A DNA stretch of 64,000 bases from Podarcis filfolensis (lineage: Eukaryota). This document shows positions 45,039-59,003 of the stretch, one piece after another. The notes below the pieces were generated by a model. That model did not search any database. It had not been told where the DNA came from and saw only the letters and a list, made by a program, of their open reading frames with translations. Position 1 is the first letter of the stretch. Each line of letters opens with the position of its first letter. The position numbers and the translations under genes were made by a program. Location: the NCBI GenBank assembly GCA_964270895.1, contig OZ185444.1; one strand, 5' to 3'.

Positions 45039-45695
45039 ACATTTGTAGTAGGTGATGGTCTCCCCGTGTCCCTGTGTCTTGTAACCCCCTCACCATCATA
45101 CAGATCTAAGTGGAAAAGTGATAGTGAAAAGAGTGTTGAAATGGAACAAGCCCAATGGTAGACTAGCTGTCAACTGCTTTCCATGTGGGTAGCAACAGAG
45201 TGGCAATAGCTCTGTCTCTCATTTCTTATAGGGAAATGCTTTCTCTCCTGTTCAATATTGACTGCCCTAAACAGATCTTCAACTTCTTTTGGTTTGTCTT
45301 TCCAACAAAATGTGCGATTTTATTGGCCATAATATTCTCACACATAAGACTCAACATCTTAGAGCTACCGTATTTTATGCTTTTAGGTAGTGAGTGTACT
45401 GTAGTACTTTCCATTTAAGATAGAAACTTGAATCAAAATTAAGTTACTGTTCTTTGAAACTCAAAACAGTTGGCTTCCTCTATATCCATATTTTTAAACT
45501 ATACCAGCACAGCAAGATCAGAGTCGATAGAGGAAAGAGAAATAAATCATCTGGTGAGCCATTATCATTCACTTTACATGGGGTGGAAAACAAATATCGC
45601 TGTCATTTTCTGACATTCATTGTAGATAAATTGGAAATGTATATCATTCTTTAACATAGTAAAGAAACAAAAAAGCACCACCTATTATTCTGTGA

Positions 45696-46622
45696 TATAT
45701 GTTGCTTTTGTAATATATATTATCAAGAGAAAAAACAAACTAGTTCCCTTGACTCCCAGATGTTGAAAGCATATCTTATCATGTCCCCAAATCATAAAAG
45801 CCTCATTTAGAAGAAAAATAAAGGAAAAGCTTTTCAATTATAGGAAGAGCAAAATAAATGACAATTGTCTCTGTCTTCCTACACTACTGCTCTTGGAAAG
45901 AAAAGCGAGGAAGAGCGGGCATGTGGACTCTTGATAATATTAGAATTCATATGAGAACTTAGTTCACAAAATTGTAAAGGGTTGTAGTAACGTCTTAGGG
46001 TGCATTTTTTGGAGGTTCAGTCCCTAGGAAGGGGTAGGAAAGACTCTCCTCTGAGAGCCCGGGAGAACCATTGCCAGTTAGTGAAAAGACGACTGAGCAA
46101 GATAGACCAATGCTTTGACTTGATTCAAAGCAACTTTCCATATTTGTAGTCTTGTATTATATGTTGCTTTTGTAATATATATTATCAAGAGAAAAAACAA
46201 ACTAGTTCCCTTGACTCCCAGATGTTGAAAGCATATCTTATCATGTCCCCAAATCATAAAAGCCTCATTTAGAAGAAAAATAAAGGAAAAGCTTTTCAAT
46301 TATAGGAAGAGCAAAATAAATGACAATTGTCTCTGTCTTCCTACACTACTGCTCTTGGAAAGAAAAGCGAGGAAGAGTGGGCATGTGGACTCTTGATAAT
46401 ATTAGAATTCATATGAGAACTTAGTTCACAAAATTGTAAAGGGTTGTAGTAACGTCTTAGGGTGCATTTTTTGGAGGTTCAGTCCCTAGGAAGGGGTAGG
46501 AAAGACTCTCCTCTGAGAGCCCGGGAGAACCATTGCCAGTTAGTGAAAAGACGACTGAGCAAGATAGACCAATGCTTTGACTTGATTCAAAGCAACTTTC
46601 CATATTTGTAGTCTTGTATTAT
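45696..46622. repeat. Tandem duplication, 2 x 462 bp
   Basis: 45696-46157 repeats at 46158-46619; the only difference seen is GAAGAGCGGG versus GAAGAGTGGG. Confidence 0.95.
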
Positions 46623-53050: not shown

Positions 53051-53271
53051 ACATTACTTCTGCTAAATGAGCCACCATAGTCACTAGACGGCTGTGAAAA
53101 TTTTTGTCCTGGGCTTTTTAGACTCGTCTACCCATGTACTCTCTGAAACCAAAGAGGTGCATTGCTTGCCAGATGTGAAATGTATTGACATTATTTTCAG
53201 CTCTCCTACCCAACTAGATGGGGACCTATTTTTCCTCCTACTTACCCGGTATTGGGTAAGATAGTAAATGG

Positions 53272-53639
53272 TGTTAGGATATTTCCGTTCCACCTTAAAA
53301 GGGTGCAGGATGTTTGTATAACACCCTGCGTAAGTTCCTGTCTCACAGGATGTTTATGCTATATGTTCCTTTCGATTTTGTCTGTCTTGCCTGAGCAGTC
53401 GGAGGAGACGGTCATGATTTCTTTGTTCTGACCTACGCTGAATAAAACTGTAAATATGCAGTTCTGCTCTCATGCTGTGCAACTTCTGTTGTGTGAATTC
53501 TGCTGAAAGAGTGTGCTCTAAGCCAGAGGCTTAGTGTCGCTGAATTGCTGATATTGCCTGACTACGGGAGGTCGATGGATCGTCCGGCATCCGAGCTTGG
53601 GGCTCAGATGGACCTTATCTCCCTGGCAGTATCCCAACA
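53272..53639 (+). repeat. 5' LTR (368 bp)
   Basis: Begins TGTTAGGAT and ends ATCCCAACA (8/9 inverted termini); AATAAA at 53441-53446; matches 58037-58404 base for base by eye. Confidence 0.98.
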
Positions 53640-53642
53640 ACA

Positions 53643-53656
53643 GGTTATGGGCCCAG
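53643..53656 (+). promoter_or_regulatory. Primer-binding site complementary to the anticodon arm of initiator tRNA-Met (half-tRNA priming)
   Basis: GGTTATGGGCCCAG, 3 nt after the LTR, is the reverse complement of CTGGGCCCATAACC (nt 26-39 of vertebrate tRNA-iMet). Drosophila copia and yeast Ty5 use this internal priming mode. Confidence 0.92.
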
Positions 53657-53874
53657 ATTCACGGCACTTGCAGGAGAGTAAGGCTGCGACAGACTGCTGA
53701 GGTATGTGTGGGAAAAGCGAAAGTAAAGGCTTTTCTGTTGCCGCGGCAGCCCTTTGATGTCCGGCAAGGCCTAATTGGCCTGGGAGCTGAGCCAAGCAGG
53801 CTTCGTGATTTATGAGAGCCAAGATAAGGAGTCTTTGAAGGCATAAAGGCTCCCGGCTGAAGCAAATAGCTGAG

Positions 53875-56800
53875 ATGGATCTTTTAGAATCCTCTGAAGC
53901 TGCTCCGTGTCCACTAAAGCTAAATGGCCACAACTATCAGACCTGGGCAAGGTACTGTGAGGGCCAGATGAGAAGGCTTGGTGTGTGGAATACTATTTCT
54001 GAGGACCCCCCAGCCCCTGTGACAGATGAATGGAGGGCACAGGACTCGAAAGCCATGGGGGTAATTTTGCTCTCAGTAGCTCCTGAAGAGTTAATCACCC
54101 TGGCTGGCAAGGCCAGTGCCCGTGAGATGTGGGACGGGCTTAGAGCCTGTCATCTCCGACAAGAGGCTGGGTCTGTGTTGCTTTATTTCAGAAAGCTGCA
54201 CAGGAAGCGTTTGGAGCCAGGGGAAGACCTTAGAGCCCACGTTTTACATTTGCAGCATCTCCGACAGGAATTGACTCAGAGAGGTTTCAATATGCCTGAG
54301 TCACTGTTTGCAATTCTCATCCTGGACTCCCTGGATGAAAGCTATCATGCCGTGTCAAGTCAGCTGGCGACCCTCCCTGCGCAAGACCTCACTGCTACAA
54401 AGGTCTTGGCGACTTTGCAAAACGAATACGACAGGAGAAATGCAGCTGAATCGGCTTGTGCGCTTCAGGGGGAGCAATGTGGGACAGCATTCCAGCCTCC
54501 AGGGGGAGCCAAAGCATTGGCAGCTGTGAAGTGCTGGAACTGTGGGAACCAAGGTCATACTCAGAAGTTTTGTCGAAAGACTGGAAATAAACAAAGGAAA
54601 AAGCCTGCAGATGGCCCGAAGCAGAAGGGGAGTGGAAAGCCAGGGAAAAACACGGCTATGTTTGCTGGCACAGCTCCACCAAAGGCTAAAGGCAAGTCTG
54701 ATGGCCAGGAGCAGGGGGGCAAGCTGCAAAAGCCCACGCTGGTGGAAAACAAGGTTTTGTTTGCCAGCAAATCTGCTTCGAAGGGGAAGGCCAGGTTTAT
54801 TGTTGACTCAGGTTGCACGCGCCATCTCAGCAAAGACCGCCATCTGTTTGTCTCCTTCACACCTCAAGATGGAGAGGTCCAGCTGGCTGATGGAAGGACT
54901 TTGCAAGCTACAGGAGTTGGAACTGTGAAACTTGCATGTCTGAATACGACCATTAGCAATGTACTTTTTGTTCCAGGAGCTGCGGACAATTTGCTTAGTG
55001 TCCCACAGCTAAATCGGCGTGGTTTTGAAATTACCTTCAAGAGGACTGTCTGTGTCATCAGAAAAGGCAAAGAGGACATTTTGCATGCAAAGTTGTTGGA
55101 TGGTTTGTTCTGTCTAACTTATGATGATGTTCCTGTTATATCTAATGCTGATACTTGTTGTGTTGCACAAACTAACAAGGTTCTTCATGCAGGTTGCATT
55201 CATGATGCACATCGAAGATTTTGTCACCTCTCTTGGCAAGCGCTAGCCAAGATGCCTGAGTTGGTTGAAGGTTTGGACATCAAACCTTGTAAATTTCACA
55301 TGAAATGTGTATCTTGTGCAGAGAACAAGGTGAAGGTTGCTCCAAAAGGCAAGGAGTCTAGCAGGCAGGCTTCCAAACCCTACCAGTTAGTTCATGCAGA
55401 CCTGGTAGGTCCTCTAGCGCCCTCTTTGGGAGGAGCAAGGTACTTTATGGTTCTAATTGATTCTTTTTCCAGGTACATTCATGTGTTTATGCTCGAGCAG
55501 AAATCGCAAGCATTTCCTAAGTTCAAGGCATTCTGTGCTTGGTTGGAGAATGCTCATGGTAAACGTATTGGCTGTCTGTTTACTGATCGGGGCGGGGAGT
55601 TCACTTCTCAGCAGTTTGAAGCTTTCCTGACTGAGAAGGGAATCCAGCATGACTTGTCAACGCCTAGATCGCCATGGATGAATGGGCTTGCGGAGAGAGC
55701 AAATCAAACGTTGCTGCAAGGCATAAAAACCTTGTTGCATGATGCCAACCTCCCTGAGAAGTTTTGGGGGGAGGCTCTCTCGAATTTTGTTTACACTATT
55801 AATCGCAGACTGTCATCACCTATTGGCTGCACTCCCTATGAGAAAATGTTTGGTAAGAAACCTAACACCAAGCACTTGAGAATCTTTGGTTCTGACATGT
55901 GGGTACACACCCCACAAAGCAACAAGCTTGGGAAGCGTGGGGCACATGGTTTGTTCATGGGGTACGATAAAGGTGCATACAGAGTATGGATGACTAACTC
56001 TAAATCCATAAAATTCACAAGGAGTGTTGAGTACAATCCCAAGTGGGGGGAAAATGTGGGAATTTTCCAGAGTTACCCAGAGGAGGATGAAGGTGATGTG
56101 AAGAAAGCAGATCATGCTGAGAAAGCTGAGGAAACTGAGGATGATGATGATGATGATGATGATGATCAGAGTTCGGATTCCAGTTCAGTGGGCGGCGCTG
56201 CTGCTGCTGTCAGTGACAGTGATGACACAGCAGACTACAAGAGCGCAAAGGCCTCAGTCAGACCATCTGATGCGTCTGACAATGAACTGGAAGAACCACT
56301 GTTCACCATTGGTCACTTTTCTCCTAAGAAGGAGGAGATGAGTCCAGAAGACTTGCGTCTAGTTCGCAGGTCTGAAAGGGCGACCAAAGGCAGACCTCCA
56401 AAGAGATTTGCTGATGAGTTTGCTAAGACGGCAACAGCTGTTCTTAGTAGCTCAGAGAAGGTGTGGGAACCTTCAAGCTTCAAAGAGGTCCAGGAGCTAA
56501 CCTCTAAAGATGCTGAGCCTTGGCTTAATGCCATGAAGGCTGAAGTTGATTCCTTAAACAGGAACCAAACTTGGGAGCTGGTACCGGTAGTCCCAGGGAT
56601 GAGACTGGTTGGCAGCAAATGGGTCTTCAAGGCCAAGACAGACCAGAATGGCAAGGTTGTCAGACACAAAGCCAGGTTGGTTGCCAGAGGTTTTTCACAG
56701 GTACCAGGGCAGGATTACCACGAGACCTACTCACCCACGGTCAAATATGAGAGCATTCGGCTGATGCTCAAGATCGCTGCGGAGGAGAAACTGCATGTTT

Positions 56801-57999
56801 CCCATCATGACATAAATACAGCTTTTTTGTACGGGATTTTGGCGGAGGAGCTGTACATGCTTCCACCTGACGGGATGCAGATACAGAAGGGAATGGTCTG
56901 TAAACTGCGGAAATCCTTATATGGTCTCAAGCAGAGTGCCAGGTGTTGGAACACAAAACTCACTGAAACGTTGCTTTCTCTAGGTTTTCACCAGGGCAAA
57001 GCTGATCCGTGTGTGTTTGTCAAGGAGGAGGGGCAAAACAAACTGTATTGTTTATGTTTTGTTGACGATCTTCTGATGTTTTGGAAGAATCAGGCTTTCT
57101 ACCAAAGCTCCCTAGCTCAGCTGAAGGAGCACTTTGACATGAAGGATCTTGGTGAGGTATCCAACTATCTTTCTCTGCAGGTGGAGAGGGACCAAGCAGG
57201 TAATTTTCTGGTACACCAAACACAGAAAATTGCTGATGTATTAACCAGGTTGAATTTGGTTGATGCAAACCCAGCAGACACACCGATGGTGACAGGTTAC
57301 CAGGTAGACAGTACTGCTGAAGCGTTTTCTGACACAACGCTGTACAGATGCATTCTAGGCAAGTTGAATTTCATTGCTAGATGTTCAAGACCTGACATTG
57401 CTGTAAGCACTAACCTGCTTAGCAGACATGCTAACAATCCTACTGTTCAGGATTGGAAAGCTCTGAAGCGCATAGCCCGGTATTTGAAAGGGACTATGCA
57501 CTACAGGCTGAGGTTCACCAGTCAGAAGACTGGAGGTCTTGAAATCTTTGCAGATGCAAGTTTTGGAAGTGACACCACGGATGGTACAAGCACTTCTGGA
57601 GTATGCTACATGTACAACCACTGCCTGTTTGACTGGTTGTGCAAAAAGCAGACAACAGTTAGCCTAAGTTCCTGTGAAGCAGAACTCAATGCTCTGTCAT
57701 TTTCACTCATGGATTGTGAATGGTTGATGCAACTGTTTAAGGACATTGGGGTTTCTGTGAAATGTCCTATACAAGTGTATCAAGACAATAGATCTTGTTT
57801 GGCTTTGCTGAACTCGGAGAGTTGCAAGCAAAGGACCAAGTACTTGCAGATTAAGCTACATCGTGCAAGAGAGTGTATTCAGAAAGGACTCATTCAGGTG
57901 TCCTACATGCCAGGAAATGAAATTCCTGCTGATCTGTTGTCTAAGGTTGTTAACAGAGAACAACTTAAGGTTTACGCACAAAGGTTGCAATTGGGTTGA
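53875..57999 (+). CDS. gag-pol: Copia Gag-Pol polyprotein, 1374 aa
   Basis: N-terminal LNGHNYQTW gag motif; CCHC knuckle CWNCGNQGHTQKFC (54532-54573); protease FIVDSGC (DSG at 54805); HHCC (HRRFCH...CVSC); integrase HADLVGP/TDRGGEF/NGLAERAN; RT KWVFKAK, DINTAFL and FVDD (57058-57069); RNase H FADAS/SSCEAE/QDN/PADLL. No stops or frameshifts. Confidence 0.98.
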   Translation: MDLLESSEAAPCPLKLNGHNYQTWARYCEGQMRRLGVWNTISEDPPAPVTDEWRAQDSKAMGVILLSVAPEELITLAGKASAREMWDGLRACHLRQEAGSVLLYFRKLHRKRLEPGEDLRAHVLHLQHLRQELTQRGFNMPESLFAILILDSLDESYHAVSSQLATLPAQDLTATKVLATLQNEYDRRNAAESACALQGEQCGTAFQPPGGAKALAAVKCWNCGNQGHTQKFCRKTGNKQRKKPADGPKQKGSGKPGKNTAMFAGTAPPKAKGKSDGQEQGGKLQKPTLVENKVLFASKSASKGKARFIVDSGCTRHLSKDRHLFVSFTPQDGEVQLADGRTLQATGVGTVKLACLNTTISNVLFVPGAADNLLSVPQLNRRGFEITFKRTVCVIRKGKEDILHAKLLDGLFCLTYDDVPVISNADTCCVAQTNKVLHAGCIHDAHRRFCHLSWQALAKMPELVEGLDIKPCKFHMKCVSCAENKVKVAPKGKESSRQASKPYQLVHADLVGPLAPSLGGARYFMVLIDSFSRYIHVFMLEQKSQAFPKFKAFCAWLENAHGKRIGCLFTDRGGEFTSQQFEAFLTEKGIQHDLSTPRSPWMNGLAERANQTLLQGIKTLLHDANLPEKFWGEALSNFVYTINRRLSSPIGCTPYEKMFGKKPNTKHLRIFGSDMWVHTPQSNKLGKRGAHGLFMGYDKGAYRVWMTNSKSIKFTRSVEYNPKWGENVGIFQSYPEEDEGDVKKADHAEKAEETEDDDDDDDDDQSSDSSSVGGAAAAVSDSDDTADYKSAKASVRPSDASDNELEEPLFTIGHFSPKKEEMSPEDLRLVRRSERATKGRPPKRFADEFAKTATAVLSSSEKVWEPSSFKEVQELTSKDAEPWLNAMKAEVDSLNRNQTWELVPVVPGMRLVGSKWVFKAKTDQNGKVVRHKARLVARGFSQVPGQDYHETYSPTVKYESIRLMLKIAAEEKLHVSHHDINTAFLYGILAEELYMLPPDGMQIQKGMVCKLRKSLYGLKQSARCWNTKLTETLLSLGFHQGKADPCVFVKEEGQNKLYCLCFVDDLLMFWKNQAFYQSSLAQLKEHFDMKDLGEVSNYLSLQVERDQAGNFLVHQTQKIADVLTRLNLVDANPADTPMVTGYQVDSTAEAFSDTTLYRCILGKLNFIARCSRPDIAVSTNLLSRHANNPTVQDWKALKRIARYLKGTMHYRLRFTSQKTGGLEIFADASFGSDTTDGTSTSGVCYMYNHCLFDWLCKKQTTVSLSSCEAELNALSFSLMDCEWLMQLFKDIGVSVKCPIQVYQDNRSCLALLNSESCKQRTKYLQIKLHRARECIQKGLIQVSYMPGNEIPADLLSKVVNREQLKVYAQRLQLG

Positions 58000-58023
58000 A
58001 CCACAGGTACTACAGGTTACACG

Positions 58024-58036
58024 GAAAGGGGGAGGA
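58024..58036 (+). promoter_or_regulatory. Polypurine tract
   Basis: GAAAGGGGGAGGA directly abutting the 3' LTR TG. Confidence 0.93.
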
Positions 58037-58404
58037 TGTTAGGATATTTCCGTTCCACCTTAAAAGGGTGCAGGATGTTTGTATAACACCCTGCGTAAGT
58101 TCCTGTCTCACAGGATGTTTATGCTATATGTTCCTTTCGATTTTGTCTGTCTTGCCTGAGCAGTCGGAGGAGACGGTCATGATTTCTTTGTTCTGACCTA
58201 CGCTGAATAAAACTGTAAATATGCAGTTCTGCTCTCATGCTGTGCAACTTCTGTTGTGTGAATTCTGCTGAAAGAGTGTGCTCTAAGCCAGAGGCTTAGT
58301 GTCGCTGAATTGCTGATATTGCCTGACTACGGGAGGTCGATGGATCGTCCGGCATCCGAGCTTGGGGCTCAGATGGACCTTATCTCCCTGGCAGTATCCC
58401 AACA
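58037..58404 (+). repeat. 3' LTR (368 bp)
   Basis: Same sequence as 53272-53639, followed by the TSD AATGG. Confidence 0.98.
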
Positions 58405-59003
58405 AATGGATCTACCAGGTTATACATTGGTGAAAATAATTATTTTTTGGAATGAGGTACCACTTTGGCACTTGTTTTTTTATTCAGGCTGATTGCTGCT
58501 GGTTGATAATTTGCTATCTGGGAATGACATGGGTTTTTTTATATTCCTTATATTCCTTTAACCCAGGGTCTGATTGAGCTTATCTTACACATTCCTTTTA
58601 AAATTGTATTAATGCATCACAACATTGACCAAAACACTAGGGCTTATGTGCAGTTTAAATATTGGTAAATACCGTTACTGAGGACAGAACTCTAGTGTAC
58701 TTCAGCTAGTAGACACAGAAGACACATAAAAGCATAAGGAAATTGAAAATAAAAAGAAATTATTATTAATAATAATAATTTTATTTGTATCCCACCCTCC
58801 CCTTCCGGAGCTGGGCTCAGAGTGGCTAACATCATATAAAACACAATATACATAAAAACAAACAAAAAAACAATTAAAATGCACCCCAAAATTAATTCAA
58901 ATAAATTAAAATTAAAATTAGACTGGACGAATAGCCATCCTCAAGTTAAAATTGAAAGCGGTTAATAATAAACAAAACCAAAACATGCTAGCTTCTATAA
59001 TCT

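Follow-up and report, generated by a model that had tools for sequence, protein, structure and literature searches.

Likely priming by a tRNA-iMet 5' half, with accessory-looking leader boxes, in a Ty1/copia retrotransposon family of Podarcis filfolensis

The element and its leader

The window examined here is a stretch of 64,000 nt from contig OZ185444.1 of Podarcis filfolensis (assembly GCA_964270895.1). It contains a full-length LTR retrotransposon on the plus strand, flanked by a 5-bp target-site duplication (left copy at 53267–53271, right copy at 58405–58409). The 5' LTR (53272–53639; 368 nt, TG...CA) and the 3' LTR (58037–58404) show no difference over 368 nt, and the element is a young, recent insertion. 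Between the LTRs are a 3-nt spacer (53640–53642), the primer-binding site (PBS) and leader, a single gag-pol ORF that encodes 1374 aa (53875–57999), and a polypurine tract (58023–58036). The ORF has the order gag, protease, integrase, and reverse transcriptase (RT) without env, with profile matches to Retrotran_gag_2 (32–192), Pol_BBD (308–384), rve (500–600), and RVT_2 (897–1139). The position of the integrase before the RT, together with the LTRs, the 5-bp duplication, and the polypurine tract, identifies the element as a Ty1/copia retrotransposon. Sequence comparison found four relatives, at 22–24% identity. Elsewhere, the window has a direct repeat whose copies are at least 300 nt long, 99% identical, and 462 nt apart (45691–46452), and ARAGORN found no tRNA genes in the window.

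The family of the window element has about 350 PBS matches in the 1.5-Gb genome (353 were counted, a few of which belong to another family), and the median divergence between paired LTRs is 0.3% (44 sampled copies). Variation was assessed in a main sample of 81 copies picked by position, 80 of which provided box scores, and in an old sample of 24 copies (30 old loci minus duplicates). Old subfamilies, both of this family and of others, cluster on contig C19 (G000), as they would on a non-recombining sex chromosome.

The host tRNA-iMet sequence was taken from a gene in the same genome (L037). Positions in the tRNA are numbered linearly here; from position 17 onwards, the standard numbers are larger by one. 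The core PBS (53643–53656, plus strand like all features below) lies 3 nt past the LTR and is complementary to tRNA-iMet nt 26–39. After a 3-nt bulge follows a box for nt 22–25 (53660–53663), which, CpG decay aside, is kept. The spacer then contains a hairpin (53667–53682) with a 5-bp stem and a 6-nt purine loop, which is predicted to align the boxes in register. Downstream are the boxes for nt 11–16 (53683–53688) and nt 1–5 (53694–53698), which match the complement of nt 1–16 at 13 of 16 positions when the spacer between them is included, and which are the landing site of the read-through primer copies described below. An earlier note, made from the letters of the window, had placed the motifs at exactly these coordinates, and its reverse complement of tRNA-iMet nt 1–39, with linear numbering, agrees with the host gene. 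The 13/16 match that it claimed is also rare by chance: of 20,000 dinucleotide shuffles made from the 100 nt that follow the PBS, 0.13% reached this score (p = 0.0013), compared with p = 0.008 for 12/16 and 21% of shuffles for at least 10/16. The hairpin loop (53672–53677) is purine-rich and resembles a retroviral packaging loop. A splice-donor-like motif (53700–53708) after the last box is kept in most copies viewed.

The score of the window copy is a best case and is not typical of the family. Among the 80 sampled copies, four score 13/16, 40 score 12, 33 score 11, and three score fewer; in the old sample, 8 of 24 copies score at least 11/16, and most are at 8–10/16. The first base of the nt 11–16 box pairs in 6% of the 80 copies, and in contigs of four other organisms it is mostly the non-pairing base (83–95% of depth). 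The nt 14 pair is present in 65% of the 80 copies, and the lineage that has lost it makes up the other 35%. The core of this box (nt 12–15) is kept at 87–100% in copies that are 77–88% identical to the old query. In 76 of the 81 sampled copies and in all 24 old ones, the arms of the hairpin in the 19-nt spacer are unbroken; they vary by one G-U change with no two-sided change. The boxes at 53683–53698 are two units of a repeat with a 10-nt period, and swapped, single, and doubled units are seen in old subfamilies. The conservation among relatives on which the proposal of the earlier note depended is thus found in the core bases, and not in the edges and order of the boxes, as old subfamilies have swapped or lost a box. 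Box conservation is no higher than that of the 26 nt adjoining the PBS, and unpaired box sites show no clear trend of drift towards the tRNA sequence. Boxes are absent from 29 non-family loci with a perfect PBS, which reach at most 11/16; they are therefore not a general feature.

When the leader is cofolded with tRNA-iMet nt 1–39, the multi-part pairing geometry proposed earlier is returned as the best fold of the window copy, with the hairpin looped out, and a similar extended fold is found in seven of seven family members. The complex energy relative to shuffled downstream sequence has p = 0.038 in the window copy, p < 0.001 in L204, and p = 0.12–0.65 in five others. For the binding energy, the corresponding values are p = 0.11, 0 of 150 shuffles, and p = 0.17–0.77, and the number of paired positions among tRNA nt 1–25 is not significant in any of the seven (p = 0.15–0.39). 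A pairing energy better than that of shuffled leaders is thus clear in one of seven copies (L204) and marginal in the window copy, and it is not seen in the other five. In cofolds with the whole tRNA, nt 40–72 are left as a hairpin with nt 40–45 paired with nt 64–69, which we take to be the shape in the RNase P hyperprocessing model. The 3'-half hairpin is also freed in the cofold model of a box-less family, and boxes are therefore unnecessary for freeing the 3' half in silico. Given the marginal energy gain, the varying pairs, the swapped or lost boxes of old subfamilies, and the existence of box-less half-tRNA families, the downstream boxes look real but accessory.

The anticodon mismatch in the PBS

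The window copy has the tRNA-matched, minority form of the PBS at 53647–53648; most family copies have a 2-nt mismatch there, facing the anticodon. Among the 81 sampled copies, 55 are mismatched, one has a CpG-decayed mismatched form, and 25 are matched, which gives a genomic share of 69% (56/81) for the mismatched PBS. The mismatch is also present in 16 of 24 old copies. Two rows without a leader were left out before tree building, and changes were counted on 75 rows after six long-branch and four hand-picked rows had been left out. On the tree, the matched label undergoes 21 changes, versus 20.0 ± 1.6 for shuffled labels, and sister pairs are matched/mismatched in 10 cases, mismatched/mismatched in nine, and matched/matched in one. 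Matched copies are scattered over the tree, with one all-matched clade of three; recombination among copies could blur clades. LTR age did not differ between copies with matched and mismatched PBS (p = 0.54). We infer that the matched PBS is copied anew from the primer at each cycle. Because matching is a one-way change, the mismatch would persist only if matched copies leave fewer offspring. The earlier note also regarded the boxes as part of a long target for host 5' tRNA halves. The case for this is weak, as tRNA nt 6 and 7, which are within the canonical seed, are unpaired in all 80 sampled copies and most copies are mismatched at the anticodon.

Other sources of the mismatch were considered. 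A second primer was rejected, since the 100 variant matches listed, of 108, include no tRNA-like locus; the exact mismatch variant occurs among the listed matches only in L139, which is unrelated, the search pattern covering loci in which the variant is followed by a base other than A. The mismatched form could pair with the T-loop. Priming from there was rejected, with zero junctions that continue as T-arm complement from nt 61, and T-loop docking of the mismatched PBS is not chosen in cofolding. The matched form adds an AUG in strong context with a 17-codon frame. Loss of this upstream AUG was rejected as the main cause, because in the three copies examined 8–10 other ATGs already lie past the poly(A)-signal region and ahead of gag, some of them in frame with the matched-form AUG, and other families keep the AUG; its avoidance is a minor possibility. 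A candidate long-range partner of the mismatched PBS, the best-scoring site in three copies, is located about 750 nt downstream (−20 to −21 kcal/mol), and its score is close to the highest that the matched form reaches elsewhere.

Copies of both tRNA halves, at LTR ends and in U5

A genome-wide search with an 18-nt tRNA-iMet probe gave 48 matches, of which 12 correspond to tRNA genes or a pseudogene, 10 to junctions of the window-element family, 20 to one other family, and six to other families. The sequence after the LTR end and PBS departs from the element's own at 16 junctions, all of which have a matched PBS. Fourteen of these run on as tRNA complement, to nt 25, 17, 16, 10, 8, 2, or 1. 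An extra base that matches nt 40 is found in 3 of 16 copies, so the primer end is not unique. The usual 14-nt end of primer copies and the ends at nt 8–10 would fit stops at the modified G26 and m1G9. Four primer copies rejoin the leader, all four in register at the distal boxes. These four have 5-bp target duplications and identical LTRs, i.e., they are proper integrants, and they sit apart in the tree, although two share a subfamily. The other ten lead to inverted, distant, or unrelated sequence. The junctions show that plus-strand copying of the primer can reach back to nt 1 and that the boxes can serve as homology at plus-strand transfer. In-register rejoining is a matter of DNA homology and is no proof of RNA pairing at initiation. 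The presence at LTR ends of DNA copies of tRNA-iMet from nt 39 downwards makes it likely that the family is primed by the tRNA-iMet 5' half. Of the earlier proposal of half-tRNA priming with extended pairing, the priming part thus gains from these copies; the pairing part is left with a weak energy gain and variable boxes. Two further loci may be mentioned. In L078 (G000:C3:110702225-110702324), two family LTR ends are joined head to head via primer copies, one of which has a changed base at tRNA nt 9. In L109 (690–715), the start of a matched PBS lies ahead of a mismatched one, which looks like the out-of-register landing of a short primer copy.

The LTR itself has a second stretch of tRNA sequence. 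The U5 box (53568–53582; 15 nt, repeated at 58333–58347) has sense identity to tRNA-iMet nt 42–56, spanning the variable loop, the 5' strand of the T-stem, and part of the T-loop, within which the identity ends; it extends up to what we take to be the m1A58 position. The longest tRNA match in 300 shuffled LTRs is 13 nt, versus 15 nt in U5. As a stable structure, the U5 stem is no better than shuffles (z = 0.69). In several old subfamilies, the box has degenerated or is missing, and for this reason it may be an unselected product of repeated switching.

In some copies, the two bases before the U5 box (53566–53567) are replaced by tRNA nt 40–41. This conversion was found in 15 family LTRs at 10 loci, versus 487 unconverted matches, and the same search gave three further matches outside the family. 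None of the converted LTRs has CpG decay as an alternative, and for 13 of 15 an unconverted LTR is a closer relative than any other converted locus, which argues for at least nine independent events and against a single spread of the variant. Point mutation was likewise rejected as the source of the variant: the single-base change gave 16 matches, and of the 10 viewed, nine are from another family. Five elements show the conversion in both of their LTRs, so the change there predates LTR duplication. In two elements, only the 3' LTR is converted (L233 with L066; L250 with L013), and one of these 3' LTRs is set apart from the 5' LTR of its element by those two bases only. This suggests that the two LTRs of one element can come from different DNA molecules.

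No conversion tract reaches nt 38, despite an available 2-nt microhomology at nt 37–38. Because the element's own base equals nt 39, the tract end in most converted LTRs is either 39 or 40; only three events exclude nt 39 (L234/L235, L237, and L239, the last of which is from another family). In the simplest reading, the minus strand, which is complementary to the 3' half after U5 has been copied, would switch onto that half and run off its 5' end. With a primer that ends at nt 39 and U5 tracts that end at 39/40, the break is placed at 39/40 from both sides, and the shared end point of both half-copies likely marks the tRNA cut site. These fossils also suggest that both tRNA halves are in the particle during copying. 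They fit a break at 39/40 and would accommodate a branch as well, and they name no enzyme.

The same half-tRNA-iMet PBS, unaccompanied by boxes, is found in at least six more LTR families of the genome (156 matches; L251–L280). A distant copia family (30–37% identity) has a contiguous 31-nt PBS to tRNA nt 10–40, amplified in 20 copies (L040, L042, L073, L074, and 16 more), and capture of a long primer copy can therefore be fixed. This PBS ends at the presumed m1G9 position. Another copia family (34–36% gag identity) has an ordinary PBS for the tRNA-iMet 3' end (L297–L301 and L303–L306, at about position 1450–1540; L239, L076). About 50 nt downstream, this family carries most of the tRNA 3' half as a fixed copy in sense orientation with an altered T-loop, which could pair back on its own PBS, and it has the same 15-mer as the U5 box of the window element. 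In L239, this fixed copy is replaced by tRNA nt 40 to the CCA end. L236 (1460–1600) is an LTR end whose snap-back structure contains the complete tRNA 3' half, CCA included, plus a piece of the 5' half; it has a changed base at what we take to be the m1A58 position.

A probable half-tRNA primer and its alternatives

With moderate confidence, we favor a reading in which a half tRNA primes the family, extended pairing plays an accessory part and makes up for an anticodon mismatch kept by selection, both tRNA halves are in the particle, and primer sequence passes to about a third of insertions, which propagate only rarely. The core PBS for nt 26–39 is accompanied by three further boxes with a conserved hairpin between them. 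The 5' half is predicted to pair all along the PBS and the boxes while the hairpin loops out, and the 3' half, once displaced, would fold on itself. The downstream boxes likely serve as accessory anchors, keeping the primer in place at a core site weakened by the anticodon mismatch in most copies. The fossils point to a tRNA broken at nt 39/40, with the 3' half staying within reach, since the minus strand, having copied the U5 box, appears sometimes to switch onto the 3' half and copy to its end. The plus strand would then copy the primer, usually for 14 nt and sometimes to nt 8–10 or nt 1, and long primer copies would land on the boxes in register. The outcome would be that about a third of insertions inherit a tRNA-matched PBS. 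Matched and read-through copies would rarely found new copies, so that the mismatched PBS and the hairpin would be kept by selection, most likely since host tRNA fragments have better access to a perfect site or such a site interferes with folding of the leader. The idea of extended pairing resembles that for Ty1 and is here applied to a half primer. It is rather unlikely that, beyond this, the whole tRNA-iMet is taken in, its 5' half unzipped on the four-part site, and the cut at 39/40 set up in the particle, with the 3' half caught via U5 as a working step and the mismatch acting as a selected brake against repair from the primer.

Both the boxes and the U5 box may instead be accidental tRNA captures, refreshed by template switching onto co-packaged tRNA and without a role in priming, while conservation would come from the element's own leader structure (the hairpin, perhaps a signal for packaging). 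Captures occur often and can become fixed, as the 20 copies of the distant family indicate, and this explanation also agrees with the weak energy gain, the tolerance of box loss in successful lineages, the converted U5 and read-through copies that remain singletons, and the other families that manage without boxes. However, copies with 77–88% identity to the old query still keep the nt 12–15 core (87–100%) and the hairpin arms (24/24), all seven copies tested have the extended fold as their best one, and the family that bears the boxes is the one with the mismatched core site. Overall, this explanation is possible but doubtful. It is improbable that the distal boxes arose by chance tandem duplication of a short unit, with a 10-nt period that fits an internal repeat of the tRNA by coincidence. 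The boxes are indeed two units of one repeat, with swapped, single, and doubled units in old copies, and most old copies score 8–10/16, a level often attained by shuffles (at least 10 in 21%). The scores of 13/16 (p = 0.0013) and 12/16 (p = 0.008) are much rarer, the nt 22–25 box and the hairpin give a collinear three-part match, and the repeat, whatever its origin, is used in register.

The fossils also bear on whether the tRNA is cut at all. If an uncut tRNA primed through a 2'-OH or a branch at its nt 39, copying of the 3' part would stop at the branch, i.e., at nt 40, and the 3' part would be tethered to the nascent DNA; the U5 and primer-copy fossils fit a cut and a branch alike. Such priming is nevertheless very improbable, as Ty5 primes from an internal 3' end made by RNase P, according to a review (PMC5371799), and the tract in L239, from a family with an ordinary 3'-end PBS, starts at nt 40, which fits a free 3' half better.

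Copia elements that are primed by half a tRNA are placed in the genus Hemivirus. Half-tRNA-iMet priming is known in Drosophila copia, yeast Ty5, and plant Osser/Bryco (PMC10886601, PMC6317226, PMC5371799; for copia, Ty5, and some plant lineages, also PMC5445492). The window-element family resembles copia, Ty5, and Osser, as described there, in the copia domain order, the 5-bp target duplication, and the 14-nt anticodon-arm tRNA-iMet PBS adjoining the LTR. It differs from these descriptions in a PBS that is mostly mismatched at the anticodon, in boxes around a hairpin, in a U5 box with sequence of the 3' half, and in genomic fossils of both halves. Ty1 and Ty3 have an extended or bipartite PBS with short boxes outside the core for other tRNA-iMet arms (PMC5371799), a feature that the window element shares. 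However, Ty1 and Ty3 prime from the 3' end of a whole tRNA, whereas the PBS of the window element is internal and its boxes cover the D arm and the acceptor 5' strand of a half. Ty1 and Ty3 are also described as strictly inheriting the PBS (PMC7472051), i.e., without inheritance of primer sequence, whereas the window-element family inherits it in about a third of copies.

A parallel to the mismatch comes from the mouse ETn, MusD, and IAP elements. Their commonest PBS has two mismatches, perfect PBSs occur at dispersed places in the tree and are attributed to copying of the primer, and selection against the perfect PBS, as an escape from tRNA fragments, has been proposed (PMC7472051). The mismatched common form and the scattered matched form are seen in the window-element family as well. 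The mouse elements, as portrayed there, are retroviral, use tRNA 3' ends, and are targeted by 3' fragments, whereas the window element is a half-tRNA copia. In Helenus TRIMs, the LTRs are tRNA-derived; these elements are non-autonomous and have Pol III boxes A and B that are unrelated to the primer (PMC10886601). The likeness to the window element is the tRNA-like sequence within the LTR; the window element differs from Helenus, as described there, in being autonomous (1374-aa ORF) and in having only 15 nt of tRNA, which are from the other half of its own primer, in sense orientation, and recombining. HIV-1 has a tRNA-Lys3-like motif in U3-R, which is similarly a tRNA-like sequence in an LTR, as in the U5 of the window element. 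In the literature consulted, in which older journals are thinly covered, no account was found of half-primer boxes, primer inheritance in copia elements, or recombination between U5 and the 3' half.

The making of half-tRNA primers and the fate of the other half have so far been based on a few experiments in fly and yeast. A vertebrate-sized genome offers a natural record of both, with 5'-half copies from nt 39 and 3'-half copies from nt 39/40 that were apparently made in reverse transcription. This fossil record gives exact predictions for fragment ends and for the co-packaging of both halves. Moreover, primer inheritance together with a kept mismatch would extend the trade-off of priming against silencing to 5' tRNA halves, the pattern being one that has been described for mouse endogenous retroviruses and said not to hold for Ty1/Ty3.
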